64,000 nt of DNA from Mustelus asterias (lineage: Eukaryota), in contig NW_027590117.1 of the NCBI RefSeq assembly GCF_964213995.1, positions 4,898,001 through 4,962,000 of the forward strand. The letters run 5' to 3'. A program made the position numbers and the translations under genes. Shown one piece after another: positions 1,951 through 58,482 of this stretch. Within the stretch, counting starts at the first letter, position 1; every line of letters begins with the position of its first letter. The notes beneath the pieces are model-generated. The model was given only the letters and a program-made list of their open reading frames with translations. It was not told where the DNA came from and did not search any database.

Positions 1951-3503
1951 CATCAGGAACTGTTAAAAATAGAAACATAGAAGATACAAGCAAGAATAGG
2001 TCATTTGGCCCTTGGAGCCTGCTCCAACATTCGTTTTGATTGTGGCTGATCATCAAGATCAATATCCTGTTCCCGCCTTCCCCCCATATCCCTTGATCCC
2101 TTGAGTCCAAAGAGCTATCTCAAATTTACTCCACAGATTGACCAAGATCTGGGTGAAGAAATTTCTCCTCCCCTTTCTCCTCACCTCAGGTCATGTTTCC
2201 TGGATTTGTTGTCACCTAACATAGAAGCAAAGAAACTAGAGGTAGGAAACAGAATACTGTATTTGCAATCAGCAAATTGACAAGAACAGCATAAAACACT
2301 GCTACTCATAAAATACAGCAGCTACAGAGTACAACCCACATCTTCCTCACACTGACAGGAAAAATAATACTCACATTGCAACAATTAACAGATTCTGCGT
2401 AAAGACACGCAGACCTACCACACACCGACAGCAGGACCTACTTGAAATCCTTCCAGGCCAGAAACAGAGAGGGACAGAATAAAGCCCGTTGTAATAAAGC
2501 AGAAAATGACTGGCACAGACTGAAATCCATATTTATGTTTCAGGAACTTATAAACAATCCACACATCGCTAGCAGAGTGTACTAGATGTTGAATAAAGAA
2601 CATGCATAAGTTAATAGTCACGGTAGGCAGGATGGTGTCTCATCTCTATTTAGTGCATTAGCGACTAAGTGACGTTTCATAGAATCCATACAGTACAGAA
2701 GGAGGCCATTCGGCCCATCGAGCCTGCACTGACCACAGTCCCACCCAGGCCCTTTCCCCGGAACCCTATGTATTTATCCTTCAATCCCATGACGCTAAGG
2801 GGCAAATGTTGATTCGTTGGTTAGTGTTGACTTTAATTTGTTACAGTACAAGTTGTGAACCTTTGTCATGTGACCCTTTCAGATGGTCACTGGGCAATAT
2901 CAACCTCAATGGGAACTGTAACATCACACATAACTGCGACCTTGAGAATTAGTGGTAGAGACACACTCCAAATAATAGAACAGCATGTTTGGGAAAATAC
3001 CAACACACTTATACCAAAGACTGTTATGCATAGATTAAAAACTTACTCACATGGCAGAAATTAAAGTGTGCAGTGAAATAACACAAACAAATCCAAAACT
3101 GAGAAGCGCAGCTAGAAAAAAATCGCAAGATTTTCCATTTCAGAAACCAACAGGTGCTAAATGAAATAGAGAATAACATCCCAGATCCAACATACTGTAA
3201 AGCCCACACTCTCTTAAATACTGAATGTTATAGAGAAAATAAAACACACGGACATATATCAGAGATTGCATTTTCTGAATTAAATCTTAACATCACCGAC
3301 CACTGACAGAGATCGAAGCAACATAGAAATATCAGATACAAATCGACACAGCATGAAACCCACTCAGACATGGCTGACAGACAAGCAGTTTGAAATAGAA
3401 TGTGTGTATCCTGTTGTGGAATCGCTCTCGCATTGTTCCATAACTGGTACCAAATAGATTCTGTTTGATCCCTCAATGTCATCCCCCCAGCACTCTAATA
3501 GTT

Positions 3504-3814
3504 TTTTTTATACTTTTCCAATTCAATCAAATCAAATCCAATTCAGAGTCTCAACAAGTTGAGACATTTCAGATCCAGGCTGACAAGACAGGGCGAGCGA
3601 CCAAACCACCCTGTCCTGGGCCTGATCTACATGAGCCAAGCTGATTGGAGGAGGGGGAGGTTCCTCCGCCAAGACTTGAGCTCATTTGCATCTTAGCCAA
3701 AAGGCCGAGATGCCGCTTTTAAAAATTGCTTCATATGAAACATAATGACCTCGACCAAGTGCGGCCGACCATGGGCTGCCGACCATACTACACTTGATCT
3801 TAGCCAAAAGGCCG
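3504..3814 (-). mobile_element. U2 snRNA-headed short retroposon (SINEU-like, or a Keno/Utopia-derived non-autonomous element)
   Basis: Minus strand starts with U2 nt 9-39 (TCGGCCTTTTGGCTAAGATCAAGTGTAGTAT, 3815-3785) and has a second U2 nt 7-27 copy (3710-3690). It ends in an A8 tail (3509-3502) and is flanked by the direct repeat AATAGTT (3497-3503 and 3815-3821). Confidence 0.75.
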
Positions 3815-4289
3815 AATAGTTGCTTTGAACAGTAAATCACCCTCCGGGATTGTTTGACTAATCGTCCCTGAACACCTTGCAGCCAGTGATGTCCAACTCT
3901 CATTCCAGTCCTTCTTTCAGTCACTTTTCTGTTTTAGCCACAATGTTAGTGTCACATGTGGGACTTGTGGCTGCTGCTTATCAAACATATTCCCTTTTAA
4001 CACGCACAGCAGAGCTCGCATTAACCCCTGTCTGAGCCCAGATATTCTGCACTGCCAGCTCCCGGTGATGGGCGGAAGTAAAGCAGAGCAGTTGGTGCTG
4101 GTGAGGAAGGGGAAATGTATGAACAGTATCAGCAGTCTGATAGAGTGATGTGGGATTAGCAGCAGAGAGAATGTGCGGGAGAGGGAGTGAGAGGGTCAGG
4201 GGGTTGGGTGGATCGGGGCGGACAAGGGGAAAGGACGGATTGACAACAGACAGTTTGTGGATTTGAGCAGCAACCAATGTGTTTGGGTG

Positions 4290-4785: not shown

Positions 4786-6093
4786 TTATGTGAAATAGTG
4801 TGACATAAACCCAATATCCCGGTTGAGGCCGTCCTTGTGTGTGCGGAACCTGGCTATCAGTTTCTGCTCAGCGACTCTGCGCTGTCGTGTGTCGCGAAGG
4901 CCGCCTTGGAGAACGCTTACCCGAATATCAGAGGCCGAATGCCCGTGACCGCTGAAGTGCTCCCCAACAGGAAGAGAACAGTCTTGCCTGGTGATTGTCG
5001 AGCGGTGTTCATTCATCCGTTGTCGCAGCGTCTGCATAGTTTCCCCAATGTACCATGCCTCGGGACATCCTTTCTTGCAGCGTATCAGGTAGACAACGTT
5101 GGCCGAGTTGCAAGAGTATGTACCGTGTACCTGGTGGATGGTGTTCTCACGTGAGATGATGGCATCTGTGTCGATGATCCGGCACGTCTTGCAGAGGTTG
5201 CTGTGGCAGGGTTGTGTGGTGTCTTGGTCACTGTTCTCCTGAAGGCTGGGTAGTTTGCTGCGGACAATGGTCTGTTTGAGGTTGTGCGGTTGTTTGAAGG
5301 CAAGAAGTGGGGGTGTGGGGATGGCCTTGGCGAGATGTTCGTCTTCATCAATGACATGTTGAAGGCTCCGGAGGAGATGCCGTAGCTTCTCCGCTCCGGG
5401 GAAGTACTGGACAACGAAGGGTACTCTGTCCACTGTGTCCCGTGTTTGTCTTCTGAGGAGGTCGGTGCGGTTTTTCGCTGTGGCGCATTGGAACTGTTGA
5501 TCAATGAGTCTAGCGCCATATCCTGTTCTTATGAGGGCATCTTTCAGCGTCTGGAGGTGTCTGTTGCGATCCTCCTCATCCGAGCAGATCCTGTGTATAC
5601 GGAGGGCTTGTCCGTAGGGGATGGCTTCTTTAACGTGTTTAGGGTGGAAGCTGGAGAAGTGGAGCATCGTGAGGTTATCCGTGGGCTTGCGGTACAGTGA
5701 GGTGCTGAGGTGACCGTCCTTAATGGAGATGCGCGTGTCCAAGAATGCAACCGATTCCGGAGAGTAGTCTATGGTGAGCCTGATGGTGGGATGGAACTTG
5801 TTGATGTCATCATAGAGTTGTTTCAGTGATTGTTCACCATGAGTCCAAAGGAAGAAAATGTCATCGATGTATCTAGTGTATAGCACCGGTTGAAGGTCCC
5901 GTGCGGTGAAGAAGTCTTGTTCGAACCTGTGCATGAAGATGTTGGCATATTGAGGTGCAAATTTGGTCCCCATGGCTGTTCCGTGTGTCTGGATGAAGAA
6001 CTGGTTGTTGAAGGTGAAGATATTGTGGTCCAGGATGAAGCGGATGAGATGTAAAATTGCATCTGGAAACTGGCAGTTGTTGGCGCTGAGCAC
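4786..6093 (-). CDS. Penelope RT C-terminal half plus GIY-YIG endonuclease (truncated element ORF)
   Basis: GTAMG, RYIDDIF, YRKPT, Cys linker PCHSNLCKTC, NVVYLIRC...YIGET...RMNEH, GLN motif. Open for 435 codons. Confidence 0.88.
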   Translation of the reverse strand: MLSANNCQFPDAILHLIRFILDHNIFTFNNQFFIQTHGTAMGTKFAPQYANIFMHRFEQDFFTARDLQPVLYTRYIDDIFFLWTHGEQSLKQLYDDINKFHPTIRLTIDYSPESVAFLDTRISIKDGHLSTSLYRKPTDNLTMLHFSSFHPKHVKEAIPYGQALRIHRICSDEEDRNRHLQTLKDALIRTGYGARLIDQQFQCATAKNRTDLLRRQTRDTVDRVPFVVQYFPGAEKLRHLLRSLQHVIDEDEHLAKAIPTPPLLAFKQPHNLKQTIVRSKLPSLQENSDQDTTQPCHSNLCKTCRIIDTDAIISRENTIHQVHGTYSCNSANVVYLIRCKKGCPEAWYIGETMQTLRQRMNEHRSTITRQDCSLPVGEHFSGHGHSASDIRVSVLQGGLRDTRQRRVAEQKLIARFRTHKDGLNRDIGFMSHYFT

Positions 6094-6100
6094 TGAGGTC

Positions 6101-6980: not shown

Positions 6981-7016
6981 AACTCCCCAATGGACTGAAA
7001 AGCACCCAAACACAAC

Positions 7017-7032
7017 GGCTGTTTTAAGAGCC
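7017..7032 (+). promoter_or_regulatory. histone 3' stem-loop, mutated (GGCTGTTTTAAGAGCC)
   Basis: Canonical position after the H2B stop, followed by ACCCA and a purine-rich HDE. The C5>G change gives a G-G mismatch. Confidence 0.85.
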
Positions 7033-7296
7033 ACCCACAATCCCTGGGAAAAGGCTGTATCATCCATTTCGTTTCAATTATTATTTTACGACGCAGCGTC
7101 TCGAACAATGATAATTGTTGTTTTTCTGGTTATCAATGATAGACACGGAGTCAATCGCCCCGTGGATCATTGGGTCTGAGTAATATTTAAAATTAACTGG
7201 TTCCTCACCCTCTCTGGGTTTAGATCTCAGACGCGTTGATATTCGGTCCCTTTTCCAGGCTTTAGAGAGAGAGCGAGGTAATGGAGCAAATGTGTC

Positions 7297-7527
7297 AGAA
7301 TCATCGAATCCCTGCAGTACAGGGGGCCATTTGGCCCATCGAGTTTGCACCGACAACAATCCCTCACCCATCCTCGTAACCCTAAATATTTACCCTGTTA
7401 ATCCCCCTCATACTGGGGCAATTTAGCATAGCCAATCCACCCAACCCGCATACCTTTGGGCTGTGGGAAGAAAGCGGAGTGCCCGCAGGAAAACCACGCG
7501 GAATCGGGGGGAAAAAGTGCAAACTCC
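7297..7527 (-). mobile_element. older HE1-like SINE fragment
   Basis: Diverged match to the 3' two-thirds of the SINE at 6101-6440; absent from the paralogous right arm. Confidence 0.7.
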
Positions 7528-8241
7528 TCAGTTTCCAGTTTGGTCTCAATGACCGATCAGTTTATTCCCGATAAGCCCCGGTTGTGCAGGAACCCTCAGT
7601 CTCGATGAAGATGGAGAACAGCCCGTCCGTTTGCAGAACGATGTCAATGAAACTTTCTGGCGGCTGGTTCGAGAGTTTGAAAAAGAAAGAGATTAACCCC
7701 GAATGTATCCCGCATTCGAAAAGCAAATCTGCAACTTGGGATAAAACGTGAAATTGTGCAAACACAGACTGATGTTTTAAAAACGTTGTTGATAGATAGT
7801 TAATTATTGATGGGATTTGTTATTAACCGTATTTCTTGTTTGAGAAATATATCTGCGAAGTTTCCAAATTTGAATAATTTATTTTCGGCTTGTTTTCAGA
7901 TAAACCCAGACTGAAAATCAGAGACTGCCAGATACAGGTTAACTATAGACTGGGGAAGAGAGAAAGGGAGATTCTTACATTACTCAAAATGAATTCACCA
8001 TTACCGATTAGAATAATTTCCGAAACTCTTGTTCTTTCCGCTTTGGCGGCTTTTACAGTTTGAAATGAAATCGGTTGGAATCTGAGATTTTGGCGCCGTT
8101 ATTTTCCGCCCTCACTCCGTGGGCTCTCCGGATTGGTGAGTTAAGCAGATTTCTGATTGGTCATATGAACAAGATGCTGAGAGGCAGCAACAAAGTGACC
8201 AATCAGCAATGTCCACACCTCCATTCCTCCCGGAGCTATAA

Positions 8242-8691
<450 letters not shown>

Positions 8692-8721
8692 AGCGGCCAT
8701 TCTTTAATCTGATAACCCAAA

Positions 8722-8737
8722 GGCTCTTTTCAGAGCC
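8722..8737 (+). promoter_or_regulatory. histone 3' stem-loop
   Basis: GGCTCTTTTCAGAGCC followed by HDE AAAAGAGTG at ~8753. Confidence 0.95.
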
Positions 8738-8859
8738 ACTCATTTTATCTGTAAAAGAGTGATCTGTTTAACCGTCAGAGACACTGCACTGCTATTCACA
8801 GTAGAGCTGTTTCTCGCTTTGCTTTATCAATCCGTAGTTCGCCCTGTGCACATTATTGA

Positions 8860-8939
8860 TGATGTGGAGATGCCGGCGTTGGACTGGGGTGAACACAGTA
8901 AGAAGTCTCACTTTAACCTGGTGTTGTGAGACTTCTTAC
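8860..8939. mobile_element. 80-bp Penelope pseudo-LTR-derived mini insertion
   Basis: Matches the Penelope terminus seen at 20434-20490. Internal inverted repeat GTAAGAAGTCTCAC/GTGAGACTTCTTAC. TSD CACATTATTGA at 8849-8859 and 8940-8950. Confidence 0.8.
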
Positions 8940-9126
8940 CACATTATTGACCCAGGTGTTTTAATGCATGTAAATTTATGCTATTTATTGGAGAACATTT
9001 TACATATGTTAGAAATATCATTTCCAGCACCATGTCTGAGGTAATTATTTAAATACAGGTACACAATTGCCCCAGAGTGAGAAACAGCATCAAAGATTGA
9101 TGGCTGAAAAACACCTCAAACTCAAC

Positions 9127-9142
9127 GGCTCTTTTAAGAGCC
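9127..9142 (+). pseudogene. orphan histone stem-loop with H2B-like 3' UTR and no upstream CDS
   Basis: GGCTCTTTTAAGAGCC preceded by TGGCTGAAAAACACCTCAAACTCAAC, resembling the H2B 3' UTR at 6991-7016. Confidence 0.75.
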
Positions 9143-10397
9143 AGCCACAATCTCTGAAAAATCTGCGCCATCTTTTCCCTTATTGAGTTAATGAGAAATC
9201 TCTTTCTGAAGGATAGAGATTTGTCCCGTTCCGGAATGCTGTGAATGGGACGTCATATCCGCCCCTCACACGCACACTCAGATTGAAGGAACAATCAAAC
9301 TGAACTGAGAGCAGATTTTAAACCCCAGTCTGGGATTTGTGACGGACAATGAGGCCCAGCACAATATCAGGATGTAATTATTTACATTTAATGATAACTA
9401 TATTCAGTTTCAGAATAAGGTTTTTTTTTTCACTCGAGTTATCTGGGCACCGCTCCCGGAACAGAATAAAGGCGGGAATGAAGAGGTTATTCTCGGGCTG
9501 ATCTGTTTATTCCGCAGTTTTCCCAGAGGACGGAATCAGCGAGATCTGTGCACACACAGGACCTGAGTTCATTGCAGCGCTTTAAGATCTGCCTCCCCCC
9601 GGCGCTCCCTATTCTCCGGGCACAAAGCTGCCTGTTCCACCGGCGGGATTGAGTCAGGAATTCTCTCCACACCTTCCATTGGAACATTCCCGACAGCTTT
9701 CAGGGGAGAGGATCAGAAATCAGCCGTTTCCCTCTGTCCCTGTGAAGCCTGTGTGAAGGGGTTGGTTGGTGATCTCTATGTTTCTGCTTTTCCACTGAGC
9801 TGAGATTTGCTCCGTTTTAAATTGCTGAACGGGGTCTGATTACCGCCGGTTACAGATAAGAGATTGAAAAGTTCAAACTGTTCCTAAAATAACGCCAAGA
9901 TTCTGTGAGGGAAAATACAATAAACAAATTATAAAGCGTGAGATTGAAATAGTTTCCTGAACATTCAGGCGTTCCGTTATTTTGTATTTTTCCTGCACTG
10001 AAATTGGCGGGTTATTCCAATTTGAAAATGTGAACCAAACAAAACCTCCCATTTCTTCTCCCTTGCTCTCCGATTGGTGAAGAATTGGATTGACATGGGA
10101 GTGTCCAATCAGAGCTCGAGTCTGGCTGCAGCCTCGCAAACCGCTCACAATGATTATTAATAGAGATTAAACTGACGGAATCTGTATTTGAGATATTAGA
10201 TGTACTTTGTTTCCACAGATAAATATTTGAAGAAACCAGATATTTCCTCCACAGGAGTTACAGGGAAGAATGTCCCAGCTTCTTCTCACAATTCCACAGT
10301 CTCCGAGAACAGAAATGATTCCAGAGGCACGTTTTTAATCCAGCAATCAAACAGCAGGAATGGCAGACGCTGTGTCCCTATCACGTCTAGTTTTCGT

Positions 10398-10480
10398 ACC
10401 AGGATGGCCGAGTGCTAAAGGCGTTGGACTTAAGATCCAACGGACATATGTCCGCGTGGGTTCGAACCCCACTCCTGGTA
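10398..10480 (+). tRNA. tRNA-Leu(TAA), near-canonical with altered D-loop
   Basis: ACCAGGATGGCCGAG...TTGGA CT TAA GA TCCAA, long variable arm, GGTTCGAACCC, ends CCTGGTA; T5 terminator at ~10487. Confidence 0.9.
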
Positions 10481-40216: not shown

Positions 40217-40577
40217 TGTGTTTGTGTGTCTGTTCTGATCATGAGATCTCCGAGTCTCTCTTGTGTAAAATAAAACGATTTTCAATCAAAGATTCCCCCC
40301 AATCCCCCTGCTGAGCCCCAAAGTTAGATTTCAAGTCAATTGTTTCGCTAAATTGAAGAATTCAGTGGAAAAGTAGAGAACATGTCAGCTATCGCGTGTG
40401 AGAGCGCGATCAGTGCAGCAGTAAAACGGGTTTCAGTGGAAAATGGAGTCCTCAGTTCGAGTGAAACCTTTTCAACAGCAAACATTCGTGTGTCAGAGAC
40501 ATGAAGGATGTGAGCTGGATCTCTGGAGAGGCGGAATTTCATTGCAATGGGAGAGTTTGTGAGGAGAGAGAAACACA
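40217..40577 (+). promoter_or_regulatory. H1 promoter TG box (TGTGTTT, 40217-40223) and H1/AC box (AAACACA, 40571-40577)
   Basis: Both H1-specific motifs lie upstream of the H1 ATG, 354 bp apart start-to-start. Confidence 0.6.
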
Positions 40578-40721
40578 GAGAGGCTGGAGGAGCCGGGAGC
40601 TGACAGCAGCTTGTCTCTGCTCCGTCCGCTCTCTGCCTTTAAGTTGCTCTGTGCCGCCACCACTGGGTTCATTTCGGATCCAGTTCTGACTCTCACACAG
40701 ATTTTCCACACACTCTCGGAT

Positions 40722-41372
40722 ATGACTGAAACTGCAGCCGCCGAAACGGCTCCTCCAGCCGCTCCCGCTCAAGTGAAGTCTCCCAGGAAGAAGAAGGCGG
40801 CTCCCCGACCTGCGGCAGCCGGTCCCAAGTTAGGCGAGCAGATCCTCAATGTTGTGGCGGGATGCAGCGATCGCAAGGGGATGTCCCTGGCCGCGATAAA
40901 GAAAGCTTTGGCTGGCAGCGGAGTGGATGTGGGGAAGCGCGGCTCCCAGATCAGGTTAACGATCAAGAGGAAGGTGGAGACAGGGTCTCTGGTGCAGATA
41001 AAGGGACAGGGCGCCTCCGGCTCCTTCAAACTCGCTAAGAAGGAAAGCCCGGGGAAAATGGGAAAGAAGGTGAAGACACCAACAGCCAAGAAATCTTTAG
41101 TAAAGAAAACAGCGGCCAAGAAGCTGACAACAAAGAAAGCAGCAGCCAAGAAACCCGCAGCAAAGAAAACTCCAGTGAAGAAATCAACAGTGAAGAAAAC
41201 AAGCAGCAAGAAGGCGGCAACTCCAAAAAAGGCGGTGAAGAAAGCAGCCCTGAAGAAAAAGTCTCCTGTGAAGAAGGTGACGGGCGGAAAGTCTGTCAAA
41301 AAAGTGACTAAATCCAAGGCCAAACCCAAAGTGAAAGCAGCAAAAGCGAAGAAAGCGCCAGGAAAGAAGTGA
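40722..41372 (+). CDS. H1: histone H1 (216 aa)
   Basis: MTETAAAETAPP N-terminus, globular domain ending GQGASGSFKL, K/A/P-rich tail with SPxK/TPKK motifs; stem-loop follows. Confidence 0.95.
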   Translation: MTETAAAETAPPAAPAQVKSPRKKKAAPRPAAAGPKLGEQILNVVAGCSDRKGMSLAAIKKALAGSGVDVGKRGSQIRLTIKRKVETGSLVQIKGQGASGSFKLAKKESPGKMGKKVKTPTAKKSLVKKTAAKKLTTKKAAAKKPAAKKTPVKKSTVKKTSSKKAATPKKAVKKAALKKKSPVKKVTGGKSVKKVTKSKAKPKVKAAKAKKAPGKK

Positions 41373-41408
41373 AACAACCCGAGCAAATTGTAAACCTCTG
41401 AACCCAAA

Positions 41409-41424
41409 GGCTCTTCTCAGCGCC
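41409..41424 (+). promoter_or_regulatory. histone 3' stem-loop variant (GGCTCTTCTCAGCGCC)
   Basis: Flanked by CCCAAA and ACCCA with HDE GAAAGAGCTG; T-C mismatch at stem pair 4. Confidence 0.85.
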
Positions 41425-42246
41425 ACCCACATCTCTCAGGAAAGAGCTGATCCCGCAAGAAAATGATTCCTGTCCCGCGGCTCGGCTCATTCTCAATAGA
41501 GATCATTTCAAATTCAGACTAAAGCAAAACACAGCAGAGGCTGAATTTCATTTGAATTTCACATTTGTTCAATCGCCACTTTCTCTCATAATAAAGATGT
41601 CTGGTAGATTCAGTGTGAGACAGTAACACTGGCGGCTAAATACCGCTTTCCAACTTCAATTTTAACACAGGAGATTTCCCCAAACAGCTGCAATAAGGTA
41701 TTTGTAAACAGCTGGAAGCGGATGTGGGTGAGGATGTTCCTGAGGGAGATTCTTCCTCGATTCTTGCTGTGTTTAAGTCGGAATATTACTGACTGGGAAT
41801 CATAACGGGGCCAGGTTTTAAACACAAAAGCAAAAAGTCACGAACCGACTCGTTAACTCCCTCTTCACAAAAGCTGCGGGAGCTGCTGATTATTTGCAGC
41901 ATTTTCTGTTTTGATTCCATATTTCAAAGCTCCAGGTTTGTGGAAACTCTTGACTGTGAAGGGCGGCTCTCGAAGGGTTTGTGTGGGGAGCTGTGTTTCG
42001 CTTCCATTGTTATTAAACGGGTTGAAATTGGCGGTTGCAGAAACTGGAGGTGGAGCTGAAAGATCAGGGGCCGTTCTGTGTGTGTGTGTCAGTCCGGCTC
42101 TCTCCTCCCTCCCGCTCTGTGTTTAATCTTCACTCTGTCTCCTCCCCTCTCTGCTCTCACTCCGCCTTTCTCAGTCAGGTCGGTGCGGGCTGTATGAAAG
42201 GAGCCTGAAAGAGTTCCTCTCTCATATTGTGCAGTGATCTGAGTGA

Positions 42247-42567
<321 letters not shown>

Positions 42568-43796
42568 ACAACTCGATCCTTTCTCCCGAACACACAACAA
42601 AGGCTCTTTTAAGAGCCACTCACCGCTTCACAGAGAGAGCAGTGACCTGGGAACGGCAGCTGGGACAGGCTGTTCAGTGTTTGAGATGCATGTTTGTTTT
42701 GTTTAGGTTACAGTGCGGGAATCACCGAATTTAACATTTCATTTGGAGCGGCGATGGGAATTGTTTTTGAAATTTTTAAGTGGATTGTCTGAGCAGCCCC
42801 CAGTTGACGTGTGCCCTCAGTGAAACGCCACATCACTCCTGTTTAATCACTCAGTGTTTGGATCGAGTTTATAAAAGCTTTCTCTGGAATAGCGGAGTTT
42901 AGTAGCAGCAGCCGGTGAATCGTTCACTGGGACCAGTCCCAGTTGTGATGCTATTTGACCCCAGACGGTTGTTTCCTGCACTGAAACTGACAGGCTTTGT
43001 GAAACTGATCAGTTTCCGCTCAGTCATTCACAAAACCGCAATTCCCGCAGTTTGAGCCGCTCCAACCCCAGCCTGCTTCTGATTGGCCATCCTCTCCGCA
43101 TTCGCAGCTCTGAACCAATCGCAGAGCACCGAATGTGAACATTGAGCCAATCATTGGCTTCAACTGTCAACCGGCAGAAATTTTGAATTGGGGGAAATGC
43201 CGCCAATTTCAGCGCGGGAAAGGGAATTGAGACAAATTCTTAACTTATTAAAAATAGATTCTCAATTAATATTCTGCTGTAAGATTATTTTACAAAGAGG
43301 TTTCATTTCTGAACATTTGTCCGCCACGGGCGGCAAACGGCTCTATTCAGTAATGTCAAACGGGACAAATATGAAGTCACTCTCTGTAACAAACAACAGA
43401 CTCAACCCCTTTCACACCGGCGTCAGGGAGACACAGAGAAGGATTTCTGATCCTGTCCCCCGGAAACGGCGGCGAATGTTACAAGCGGCAGGAGAGGGGA
43501 AATCTGAATGGGCTGGTGAGGAAAGGGACAGGGATCGAGTGGAACAGCGGGAGATTCTGGGAATGAACAGCCCAGAGAGCGGGAAAAGGGTCTAAAGCAC
43601 TAAGTGCAGGGAGATAGACTTCAAATCTTCAATATTTCGAGTAATGTTTGTTTTAATAAGGACGGGATAAAGTCTTTTATACAGACGGCTATTTCCTGCA
43701 TCGAAAACGGCCCAATTTCTGAAAGGCGCGGTTAACAAAACAACTGAACTAATCAGAACCTGAGTTACAGACATTAATTCCCCGGTCAGAGTTTGA

Positions 43797-44330
<534 letters not shown>

Positions 44331-45108
44331 ACCCCGACTTCAGCATCAAGTCCAACAACGGCTCTTTTAAGAGCCACCAAATCGGCAAATGAAAGAGCTG
44401 CGATCTCCTGTTAACGATTCTAGTGTTTGAATTCCCAGGACAGAATATTCCCAGGACTCCAGTACCGAAACCTCTCCATGCTAACAATTAACTCTCCGTT
44501 GCATTGAGGTCACTCATATCTCCAATCCTTTGATGGTTAGAGTAAAAGCGATGCCGTTAACAGTTCTACCGCAATTCAATTTTAAAGTGGTTTTATTAAA
44601 CCTGCGATCATTTCAGTTTCCGAGCAATAATTCCGCAAATCCACTTTCTTCGCACATGTTTCGAGTCGCAGCGAGTGTTGAAAATTGCGTCAATTAGGTT
44701 CAGAATATGAAGCATATCTCAAACAGTAACCCACTCACACCGATATAGCCATTGCAGAAACGCTTGCACATTCGCATAGACAATAATTAACACTTTTCCA
44801 GATAGTGACTGACTTTGAAAACCGATGGGCTGCAGATGAATGTCCTCGCAGATTATCACATTTTAAAGCAATTATATTTGAAATAGGATCATTTATGTTC
44901 ACTGGGATAGTTTCCCCAATAAACAGCAGCGACTTGCATTAAAATACTGTATGTGTCAATAGTACAGATTGATAGAACAAAGCGGGAAACAGCTGTGCTA
45001 TGAATAGCAGTGCAGAAACTGACCGATAGACACCAGGTCGCCCTTTTTCAGATAAAGTGAGTGGCTCTGAAAAGAGCCTTTGGGTTATCAGATTAAAGAA
45101 TGGTCGCT

Positions 45109-45558
<450 letters not shown>

Positions 45559-54290: not shown

Positions 54291-55978
54291 CTGAGCTCCG
54301 TCAGAGACAACGTGAGAAGGAGCCGGCGACTCACTTCCCTGTAACTTGCGTGGAGGAGACATCACATTTATTCACGTTCCTTCAATAATTTGTCTGTGGA
54401 AACAAAGTATATTTTAAAATTCAAGTACAGGTGAGAGAGAAGATACAGATTCCGTCAGTTTAATCTCTATTAATAATCATTGTGAGCGGTTTGTGAGGCT
54501 GCAGCCAGACTCGAGCTCTGATTGCTCACTCACATTTCAATCAGATTCGTAACCAATCGGAGAGCCAGGGAGAAGAAATGGGAGGTTTTGATTGGTTCAC
54601 ATTTTCAAATTGGAAAAGCCCGCCAATTTCAGTGCAGGAAAAATACAAAATAACCGAACGCCTGAATGTTCAGGAAACTACTTCAATCTCACACTTTATA
54701 ATCTGTTTATTGTATTTTCCGCCACAGAATCCTGGCGCTATTTTAGGAACAGTTTGAATTTCTCAATCTCTTATCGAGAACCCGCGGTAATCAGACCCCG
54801 TTCCGCAATTTAAAACGGAGCAAATCTCAGCTCAGTGGAAAAGCAGAAACATAGAGATCACCAACCAACCCCTTCACACAGGCTTCACAGGGACAGAGGG
54901 AAACGGCTGATTTCTGATCCTATCCCCTAAAAGCGGCCGGGAATGTTACAATGGGAAGTGCGGAGAGAATCCCCGGCCCGATCCCGCCGGTGGAACAGGC
55001 AGCTTTGTGTCTGGAGAATAGGGAGGGCCGGGGGGAGGCAGATCTTAAAGCGCTGCAATGGACTTCGGTCCTGTGTGTGCAGAAATCTCGCTGATTCCGT
55101 CCTCTGGGAAAACTGCGGAAGAAACAGATCAGCCCGAGAATAACCTCTTCATTCCCGCCTTTACTCTGTTCCGGGAGCGACGCCCAGATCATCCGACAGA
55201 GGAAAATATATCATTCTCCAACTGCGAAATTCTTCCTTGTTGTCGACAATGCACCGGGATAGACTCGGTATGAAGCAAACTGAAGGATTCATAAAAACCT
55301 TGATTCTGACACCATGTCGTTCAATTATTCACTTGAGCTCAATATGGAGAGGGAACTGAAAACATCAGTAAACACATCAGAAACAGATCAATCCACCGTG
55401 ACAATAACTCCATCTCTGACTCCCTGCTGCCAGGAAGCAGCCCTTTCACCGAACCTGTGAGTTTATGTGTTAAATCTGAATGGGCTTGAGAGAAAAGGGA
55501 CAGAGATCGAGTCTAACGCACTAAGTGGAGGAAGATAGACTTCAAATCCTCTCTGTACCTGTAACAATCTGTGTAAGAATGGAATAAAGTCTTCGTTTGC
55601 ACAGATGGTTATTTGCTGCACAAAAAACGGCGCAAATGATGAAATTGTTGATTAACTGAAATCAGAACCCGAGTTCCAGATATCAACTATTAATAAAAAA
55701 CAGCAACTTGCATGCATTAAAATACTGCCTGTGACAATACTATCGTAACGTGGATGGTGTATTCGCCTGATGAATTCCTCTATCTGCTGCGAGACTGATG
55801 GGGTCTATTTACTATCGTACACAGGGGGAACTCCGGATTGATAAAACAAAGCGGGAAACAGCTGGACTGTGAATAGCAGCGCAGCATCTGAGGGGCAAAC
55901 AATAGATCGCCCTTTTCCAGAAAAAGTGAGTGGCTCTGAAAAGAGCCTTTGGGTTCATCAGATTAAAGAATGGTCGCT

Positions 55979-56428
<450 letters not shown>

Positions 56429-57527
56429 TTATAGCTCCGGGAGGAATGGAGGTGCGGACATTGCTGATTGGTCACTTTGTTGCTGCCTCTCAGCATCTTG
56501 TTCATATGACCAATCAGAAATCTGCTTAACTCAGCAATCCGGAGAGCCCACGGAGTGAGGGCGGAAAATAACGGCGCCAAAATCTCAGATTCCAACCGAT
56601 TTCATTTCAAACTGTAAAAGCCGCCAAAGCGGAAAGAACAAGAGTTTCGAAAATTATACGAATAGGTAATGGTTAATTAATTTTGAGTAATGTAAGAATC
56701 TCCCTTTCTCTCCGTCCCCAGTCTATAGTTAACCTGTATCTGGCAGTTTCTGATTTTCAGCCTGGGTTTTTCGGAAAATAAGTCGAAAATAACAAAATTT
56801 TCACGATTCATTTTTGAAAAGTTCGCAGATGTATTTATAAAACAAGAAATACATTTCAAATAAAATCTCTCAATAATTAACTGTCGAACAACAAAGTGTT
56901 TAAAACATCAGTCTGTGTTTGCACCATTTCACATTTTATCCCAAGTTGCAGATTTGCTTTTAGAATCCTGGATCCATTCGGCGTTAATCTCGGCCCTTTT
57001 TAAAACTCGAACTCGCCGCCAGAAAGTCTCATTGACATCGTTCTGTAAACGGACGGGATGTTCTCCATATTCGTGAGAATCAAGAGGGGAGTGAACATTT
57101 TCGGTGTAAATTGACCAGTGACGAGACTGAGGTTCCTGCACAACCGGGGCTGATGGGGAATAAACTGATCGATTATTAAGACCAAACTGGAACAGAATTG
57201 GAAGCTGACACATTTGCTCCATTAGCTCTCTCTCTCTCTCTCCCTCTCTAAAGTCGGGGAAACGGGCCTCTGAGATCTAAGTGCAGAGGCGGTCGGAAAC
57301 CAATTAATTAATTAATGAAACATTATTAATCAGACGCTGGGCGATCAACTTGCATTACTCAGTACCTATCATTGATCAACAGTAAAAACAACAATTAGAT
57401 TGTTCGAGACGCGTCAGAGTGAAAGATTAATTGAAACTAAATGGATGATACAGCTTTTTCAGGGAGATTGTGAGTGGCTCTTAAAAGAGCCGTTGTGTTT
57501 GGGATGTTATTCAGTCCATGGGGGGTT

Positions 57528-57902: not shown

Positions 57903-58482
57903 CCTCACAGTTAATTTCAGACACAGAATCACTAAGTCGCGCTCGGAACTCCTCTTTTATAGACCAAAGCAGAGGCCTATGCTAATGAAGGATGGCTGAA
58001 AGCCCCGTTCCCCATTGGCCCATTCACAGTGATGTCAATTCGTAACGCTCTCTCTCTGATTGGTTAGTTCAGAGACACAAACACAGAGTTTGTGGATTTG
58101 GGCAGTAACCAGTCTGTTGTCAATCCGTCCTTTCCCCTTGTCCGCCCCGATCCACCCAACCCCCTGACTCTCTCACTCCCTCTGCCGCACCAGCGCATTC
58201 TCTCTGCTGCTAATCCCACATCACTCTATCAGACTGCTGATACTGTTCATACATTTCCCCTTCCTCTGCTTTACTTCCGTCCATCACCGGGAGCTGGCAG
58301 TGTACAATATCTGGGCGTGTGGAAGGGGAATAAGTTTGATGAGCAACAGCCACATTGACATTGTTGCTAAAACAAAAAGCTGACTGCAAGAAGAAGTGGA
58401 ATTAGAATTGGATATTACTGGCTACAAGCCTTGATACGGTTCCACACCAGAGGCAAATAAAGAAAATGAGAGCACGTGGAAT

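Follow-up and report, generated by a model that had tools for sequence, protein, structure and literature searches.

The window analysed here, a stretch of 64,000 nt (G000:C85:4898001-4962000 of a 3.68-Gb genome), carries one copy of a real, young, U2-derived SINEU-like family, whose members are about 300-345 nt long, non-coding and furnished with an A tail. We consider it probable, on the evidence of sequence comparisons, that these are dispersed non-coding retroposons built largely of remodelled U2, with a Keno-type Tx1 LINE as the likely agent of copying and the promoters of the U2 genes that they invade as the likely source of their transcripts.

The window copy and its family

The window sits in a histone cluster, and its copy of the element is laid out in Table 1. 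The head, 3815-3785, is identical at 31/31 nt to the genome's own U2 gene, in agreement with the claim of a U2 9-39 head made in the sequence-only reading; base 3815 is common to the end of the upstream duplication and the start of the head, the unambiguous head being U2 10-39. That reading had also noticed U2 stem-loop I (nt 7-27) recurring and overlapping an octamer, and both were found: the U2 stretch is exact at 3710-3690 (21 of 24 aligned columns form the exact match to U2 7-27) and the octamer lies at 3691-3684. The window has two occurrences of an 18-nt U2 motif, and 100 shuffles have none. The structured body was likewise recovered, with both the perfect 8-bp stem at 3548-3565 and the long stem at 3584-3618 present, and the 325-nt minus strand has a predicted fold of -131.2 kcal/mol (z = -7.5; 0/100 shuffles as good). 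Scored with the Rfam U2 model, the window copy reaches 30.7 bits where the cut-off is 46, with stems III-IV absent and the T run in 3717..3752 aligned to the Sm site. Rfam gave U2 matches alone over the window element, with no tRNA, 5S or 7SL-type internal Pol III promoter, and T runs of 4-5 occur inside it.

Table 1. Anatomy of the window copy in window positions, listed from the 5' to the 3' end of the element
Feature	Position	Strand	Basis
Target-site duplication of 7 bp, upstream copy (its final base is also U2 nt 9)	3815..3821	-	7-mer present once in each of 3 empty paralogous loci
U2 head, nt 9-39 (stem-loop I and branch-point-pairing region), with an 8-9 nt 5' truncation here	3785..3815	-	31/31 identity
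Spacer hairpin after the head, subfamily-specific	3763..3784	-	predicted fold; spacer types
Masking arm, predicted to pair with head U2 nt 25-36	3753..3764	-	fold; at least 11/12 pairs in 113/123 copies
Remainder of left module: small hairpin, plus an A/T run where an imperfect Sm site would lie; 20-nt deletion in the window copy	3717..3752	-	fold; U2 model; paralogues
Internal U2 stem-loop I, head of the older right module; U2 7-27 exact at 3710-3690	3688..3713	-	alignment to U2
Octamer-like 8-mer, from U2 nt 26-32 via small changes	3684..3691	-	alignment; kept in 119/128 copies
Hairpin A, duplicate of the old family's long hairpin	3631..3685	-	aligns to hairpin B and to the old-family hairpin
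Hairpin B, 3' arm from U2 stem IIa	3571..3628	-	alignments; compensatory pairs
Hairpin from U2 stem IIb	3548..3565	-	C-G of U2 has become U-A; paired in 100% of cells
3' end: repeated pentamers that stem from the stretch preceding the U2 Sm site, followed by a short Keno-like terminus	3510..3547	-	alignments
A tail, 6 A's	3504..3509	-	sequence
Downstream copy of the 7-bp target-site duplication	3497..3503	-	sequence; empty paralogous loci

The tail had been read as A8 with a 7-bp target-site duplication; the A8 consists of six tail A's and two A's of the duplication, and the duplication itself is proven. The paralogous loci number 13 when counted as distinct: the element occupies 10 of them, and in the 3 empty ones the 7-mer occurs once. 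The window copy is therefore a genuine insertion, which segmental duplication multiplied afterwards. The spacing of about 75 nt between head and internal U2 piece holds for the window copy and is not a family trait: 6 of 9 filled paralogues are 20 nt longer and the other 3 are 11-15 nt longer, the window copy having lost 20 nt after insertion. A paralogue within the window, at 57958-58428, ends short of the insertion point.

As to the neighbourhood, a retrovirus-like or LTR element with long open frames, a zinc knuckle, RT and RNase H lies just upstream of the window (L066:2097-7616), and a Penelope-like fragment with RT and a weak GIY-YIG match, repeated several times in the window, occupies 4789-6099 on the minus strand. 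Pfam identifies histone genes (a core histone read as H3, and an H1) with 3' stem-loops at 7012-9167, 40563-45549 and 55908-57496, and tRNA matches lie at 10398, 13443 and 39047.

Used as a whole-genome query, the window element returned 2050 candidates (40 scored, with 47 matches, 44 of them long) and a sister subfamily returned 2966, the two counts being rough and overlapping; 135,653 first-look candidates for the U2 model were flagged as rough and left out of the counts. Considering that no family copy fell within 40 random 10-kb stretches (400 kb), which sets a ceiling near 28,000 copies at 95%, the family total lies in the thousands and below about 28,000. Copy statistics were taken from top-scoring matches (30 loci per search) and are biased to long, young copies. 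They cover 140 distinct copies, 128 of which have the head, ending at U2 nt 39-40 in 108/128 and starting at U2 +1 in 35/128. Several subfamilies are marked by the spacers that follow the head, the flanks of dispersed copies are varied, and duplications of at least 7 nt border 22/52 copies as against 1-2 in mismatched controls, under a rule strict enough to miss the window copy's own 7-bp duplication. Thousands of candidates with varied target-site duplications thus bear out the proposal of an independently mobile, U2-headed, SINEU-like family.

Could the copies nonetheless be independent template-switch chimeras of U2 and another RNA, with no family behind them? The extra U2 piece at the 5' end of a few copies (L174, L190, L319) speaks for this idea, but the junction fixed in 108/128 copies refutes it. 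Together with the subfamily-specific spacers, the fixed junction excludes one-off chimeras, and the body is accordingly not single-copy. An arm complementary to the head also counts against such chimeras, as do the left modules: no free one was found among 30 left-module matches, 30/30 running on into the internal U2 stem-loop and 26/30 passing the full right-module test. We give the chimera reading next to no credence.

In 13/128 cases a copy stands directly behind another of the family; the two often belong to different subfamilies and are arranged about a repeated duplication. Antisense insertions just past another copy's U2 head were seen at L009:1461-1880, L011:1218-2204 (two copies at that site) and L338, and the copies in L016, L018, L142 and L323 lie at or adjoin the same position of one common repeat, which we take to be CR1-like and whose site resembles U2 stem-loop I.

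Origin of the body and predicted fold of the head

Near a U2 array, a simpler relative (L141) opened the way to an older family, about 220 nt long, for which 3145 candidates were returned at 87-92% identity to the query (copies in L187-L216, e.g. G000:C26:36961170-36961395), which is a separate SINEU-like family in its own right. It is a remodelled U2 in full, with stem-loop I, stem IIb, an Sm-like site and the stem III region retained and a new long hairpin standing where the branch-point region was. From 29 old copies tried, 27 were extracted, and 27/27 beat 200 shuffles against U2 40-191; Rfam matched U2 in 5/6 of those scanned, one of them above the gathering score. The window body, in turn, beat 200 shuffles against 27/27 old-family copies (scores 51-83), and the old-family hairpin aligns with hairpin A as well as with hairpin B of the young family. 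Compared with U2 directly, the body gives a signal that is weak alone (48/2000 shuffles as good) and clear only through the old family. These alignments show descent of the body from the old U2-derived family, along a path that would lead from U2 to the old monomer, then through duplication of its hairpin and loss of stems III-IV, and finally to a new U2-headed left module. What now lies inside as the internal U2 piece was the head of the older element to begin with and is no added targeting module; the role in target recognition once suggested for it is not supported, and targeting is mostly relaxed.

The sequence-only reading had instead derived the body from a 5'-truncated Keno or Utopia element, whose 3' end would have been joined to a U2 head. 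The window body does score 36 against the Keno 3' UTR, where 300 shuffles gave a maximum of 33, and its last ~10 nt resemble the Keno end; however, that alignment is gapped, A/T-rich and confined to the extreme 3' end, and the body aligns far better to the U2-derived old family. A Keno-type LINE sharing the 3' body did not emerge either, BLAST of the element against the full Keno unit (the direct comparison being with the Keno family of L061) returning U2 pieces only. In that comparison the element shares no 5' or 3' UTR with Keno, the resemblance being limited to U2 pieces and the short A/T-rich end. This origin of the body is largely refuted, and we regard it as very improbable.

Beyond the spacer lies an arm whose predicted pairing with U2 25-36 reaches 11-12 of 12 positions in 113/123 copies, and 3-6 when slid by 1-2 nt; the predicted masking covers 4/6 of the branch-point-pairing bases. 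In the old family, the branch-point hexamer is absent from 25/25 copies matched. Going by the known function of U2, a branch-point region masked or deleted in this way would keep the RNA from acting as U2 at introns, but retention of stem-loop I and of the Sm-like run may nevertheless aid capping or stability of the snRNA type. The earlier idea of RNP mimicry is, as far as the head is concerned, at odds with this predicted fold and with the old-family deletion.

Are the sources perhaps host-kept U2-variant snRNA genes with their own diverged promoters, the dispersed copies being retro-pseudogenes? The old family keeps U2 stem IIb, the Sm-like site and the stem III region, many copies begin at +1, and the stems are kept by double changes: in an alignment of 13 sequences, 97.5% of 281 cells are paired and 5/23 pairs are changed on both sides, as against 28-49% pairing in slid controls. 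That alignment, however, was hand-picked, takes its structure from the window copy and has cells that reflect few subfamily events, and retroposon RNA can also be under structural selection. Further points against host-kept genes are the missing branch-point hexamer and the promoters, no old-family locus having been found behind a U2-type PSE by exact-match pattern in the assembly, a search that would miss a diverged PSE. The many successive subfamilies and the tail of AATAAA type or Keno-like form fit a selfish lineage. When the window-type element was examined for the features of a U2 gene, 52 dispersed copies had no PSE at about -60, the branch-point-pairing region was predicted not to be free, and stems III-IV were absent. 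We judge host-kept genes to be an unlikely source.

Probable partner LINE and insertion into U2 genes

The genome's true U2 genes lie in arrays on C24. There, an 8,035-bp tandem unit (L061, G000:C24:44838000-44847999), present in at least 15 near-identical repeats, joins an intact U2 gene to a Keno-like LINE whose frames, read from L061 and L063, hold a ZCCHC3-like and zinc-knuckle ORF1, an APE endonuclease, RT and zf-RVT. This LINE ends in poly(A) at U2 nt 38, which is where Keno and Utopia are described as inserting (PMC4640811). The name Keno for the array LINE rests on its domains and insertion site (3' junction U2 nt 38-39).

Several further U2-related structures were seen. At its 5' end, the array LINE (L061) opens with U2 5-35 and continues into a partly complementary stretch, much as in the masked head of the SINE. 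Short Keno-like remnants with a U2 1-35 head lie at L064:3635-3720 and in L156, and the stretch before that head in L064 resembles the 5' end of U1 snRNA. In array units at L137:8643-8849 and in four more in L138-L139, a triplicated stretch around the branch-point region takes the place of part of the U2 gene, giving 207 nt and not 191.

Family copies end at the Keno site of U2 genes in three cases, two in one gene in L063 and one in L151, all coming from 250 kb chosen around U2 arrays. The order in the L063 gene is promoter, U2 1-39, SINE, U2 38-55, truncated LINE, U2 38-55, SINE, U2 38-191. Outside the arrays, the SINE stands directly behind a Keno/Tx1 3' end in L236 and L241 (2/128 SINE copies), and directly behind dispersed Keno ends in L278 and L284 (2/22, with L278 examined because its coordinates already showed a SINE behind the Keno end); a search of 400 kb of random DNA did not find the Keno end motif. 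Insertion into U2 genes at the site of the LINE, together with copies standing behind LINE 3' ends, points indirectly to a target preference common to the SINE and a Tx1-type LINE. The link to a U2-targeting LINE drawn in the sequence-only reading survives in these two respects, the shared site and the copies behind Keno ends, and falls with regard to the origin of the body.

Strict targeting of U2 was rejected, the dispersed 3' flanks not being significantly U2-like (3/56 start like U2, and 257/5000 background draws match as well). The Keno-like LINE itself is relaxed and widely dispersed here: it has 815 candidates, and 22 of 23 non-array matches were examined, 22/22 of them without a U2 3' flank. 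Since 31/112 SINE copies have a different tail and the resemblance to the Keno 3' end covers a short, A/T-rich stretch, the partner could belong to another L1/Tx1 family; a Keno-type LINE is in our view likely to be it.

We posit that Keno proteins would nick the U2 gene at nt 37/38 and reverse-transcribe the element RNA, and that the U2 head of the cDNA would anneal to the target's U2 1-39, giving a new copy in register behind the PSE. Such an in-register copy would become a Pol II source gene starting at U2 +1, most of its daughters would land at dispersed sites, as Keno does here, and the fold, by hiding the branch-point-pairing region, would limit splicing interference.

Source of the RNA and place among known elements

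Exact-match pattern searches of the assembly yielded one PSE-linked copy, in L063, where an intact U2 upstream region (98.8% over 250 nt) runs directly into U2 1-39 and the family body. Its 5' junction, at +1, bears no duplication, which is what annealing of the head to its target would leave. A master copy with a PSE upstream had been envisaged at the outset; this copy supplies the PSE, but lacks two hairpins, and since no dispersed daughters with that loss occur among 40 scored, it is no demonstrated master. Collapsed arrays or lost masters could hide a working one. In L160, the 7 nt between a 16-bp duplication and +1 are identical to the 7 nt upstream of 8/30 U2 genes; such a U2-upstream extension is unique among 35 full-length copies, and a template switch or chance might account for it. 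A rare tail variant is common to L160 and the PSE-linked copy of L063 and occurs in 2/112 dispersed copies. Upstream of 52 dispersed copies, the best PSE match is 11/19.

Other candidate signals fared poorly. An internal PSE was rejected, as the best stretch of the body matches at 13/21, a value reached by 124/1000 shuffles, and an extra G at the 5' junction, considered as a cap trace, is present in 4/14 full-length copies, no excess. A function of the octamer as enhancer finds no support, the genome's U2 genes having no perfect octamer in 1.5 kb upstream and a variant at -232 only; octamer-like by sequence, the motif arises from U2 and lies inside the element.

We lean, by a modest degree, towards transcription from borrowed U2 promoters. 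U2 promoters had been invoked before, and remain a likely source of the RNA in light of the copy in L063; co-transcription of a truncated LINE, the scenario to which they were then tied, is not upheld. Alternatively, a SINEU-like retroposon might obtain its RNA by read-through of unrelated flanking Pol II promoters or from LINE-driven transcripts, with the copies in U2 genes as dead ends. This would suit a PSE-linked copy that is single and degenerate, as well as the unrelated 5' extension of about 60 nt in L065, and transcription from flanking sequence has been proposed for crocodilian SINEU-2 (Kojima 2015, PMC4494074). Read-through does not, however, explain the pile-up of 5' ends at U2 +1 (35/128) without a processing step, nor the U2-upstream extension in L160, and we think it improbable.

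Carried further, the preferred reading of borrowed U2 promoters would make the element a self-renewing parasite of the U2 locus: a remodelled U2, turned into an Alu-like two-module element, that re-enters at the Keno cut, is guided by its own U2 head to +1 behind the promoter and, with its branch-point arm locked, is made as an snRNA without disturbing splicing. We offer this fuller scenario tentatively, as a possibility that may well prove wrong.

Alu itself went from 7SL to a monomer and then to a dimer. The lineage described here resembles that of Alu, an analogy also drawn in PMC4494074, in its stepwise passage from a complete housekeeping RNA to an element of two modules that retains its stems; Alu differs in having an internal Pol III promoter, none being found in this element. 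SINEU was defined by Kojima 2015 (PMC4494074), where none is reported outside crocodilians, a Tx1 partner is inferred and transcription is left open. The crocodilian range is repeated in PMC5381603, and shark SINEs are tabulated as tRNA-headed in PMC3747384. No snRNA-headed SINE outside crocodilians was found by an abstract-level search of mainly open-access literature.

The U1/U2-type 5' head, the non-coding length below 500 bp with an A-rich tail and the multi-copy state are all features of SINEU that the family has. Like SINEU-1 as described in PMC4494074, it is shorter than 500 bp, with a U2-derived head, a poly(A) tail and thousands of copies; in both, growth proceeded by repeated 5' snRNA additions and partial duplication, the Tx1 partner is inferred and no LINE has the same body. 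Unlike SINEU-1, the body here traces to U2 via a surviving older family, and these copies showed no U1 piece; the family favours U2 genes and the ends of Keno or of its own copies, where SINEU-1 favours Mariner-N4. SINEU-3 (PMC4494074) is similar in being almost wholly a rearranged U2 gene with tandem insertions around one duplication, but it is an internally deleted U2, 90% Mariner-targeted, whereas in the old family here U2 is full-length, with the branch-point region replaced by a new hairpin, and the young family, unlike SINEU-3, is a two-module derivative. With Keno and Utopia (PMC4640811) there is the same U2 insertion point, and the resident LINE has an APE endonuclease, as Keno does; unlike Keno, the element is non-coding and has no body in common with it, and the Keno-like family here is widely dispersed. 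Compared with SINEU by its described features, the element works like SINEU, and an independent origin is likely.

Some family copies lie above the Rfam U2 cut-off (L160 at 58 bits, L065 at 51, L201 at 48) and can therefore inflate U2 gene counts. More broadly, one genome holds the young family, its ancestral stage, the likely partner LINE, a copy in promoter register and a daughter with U2-upstream-like sequence, so that the idea of promoter borrowing is directly testable at the named loci; the full path from a spliceosomal RNA to a SINE is also displayed. If true, the reading of the element as a parasite of the U2 locus would answer how snRNA-headed SINEs get transcribed.
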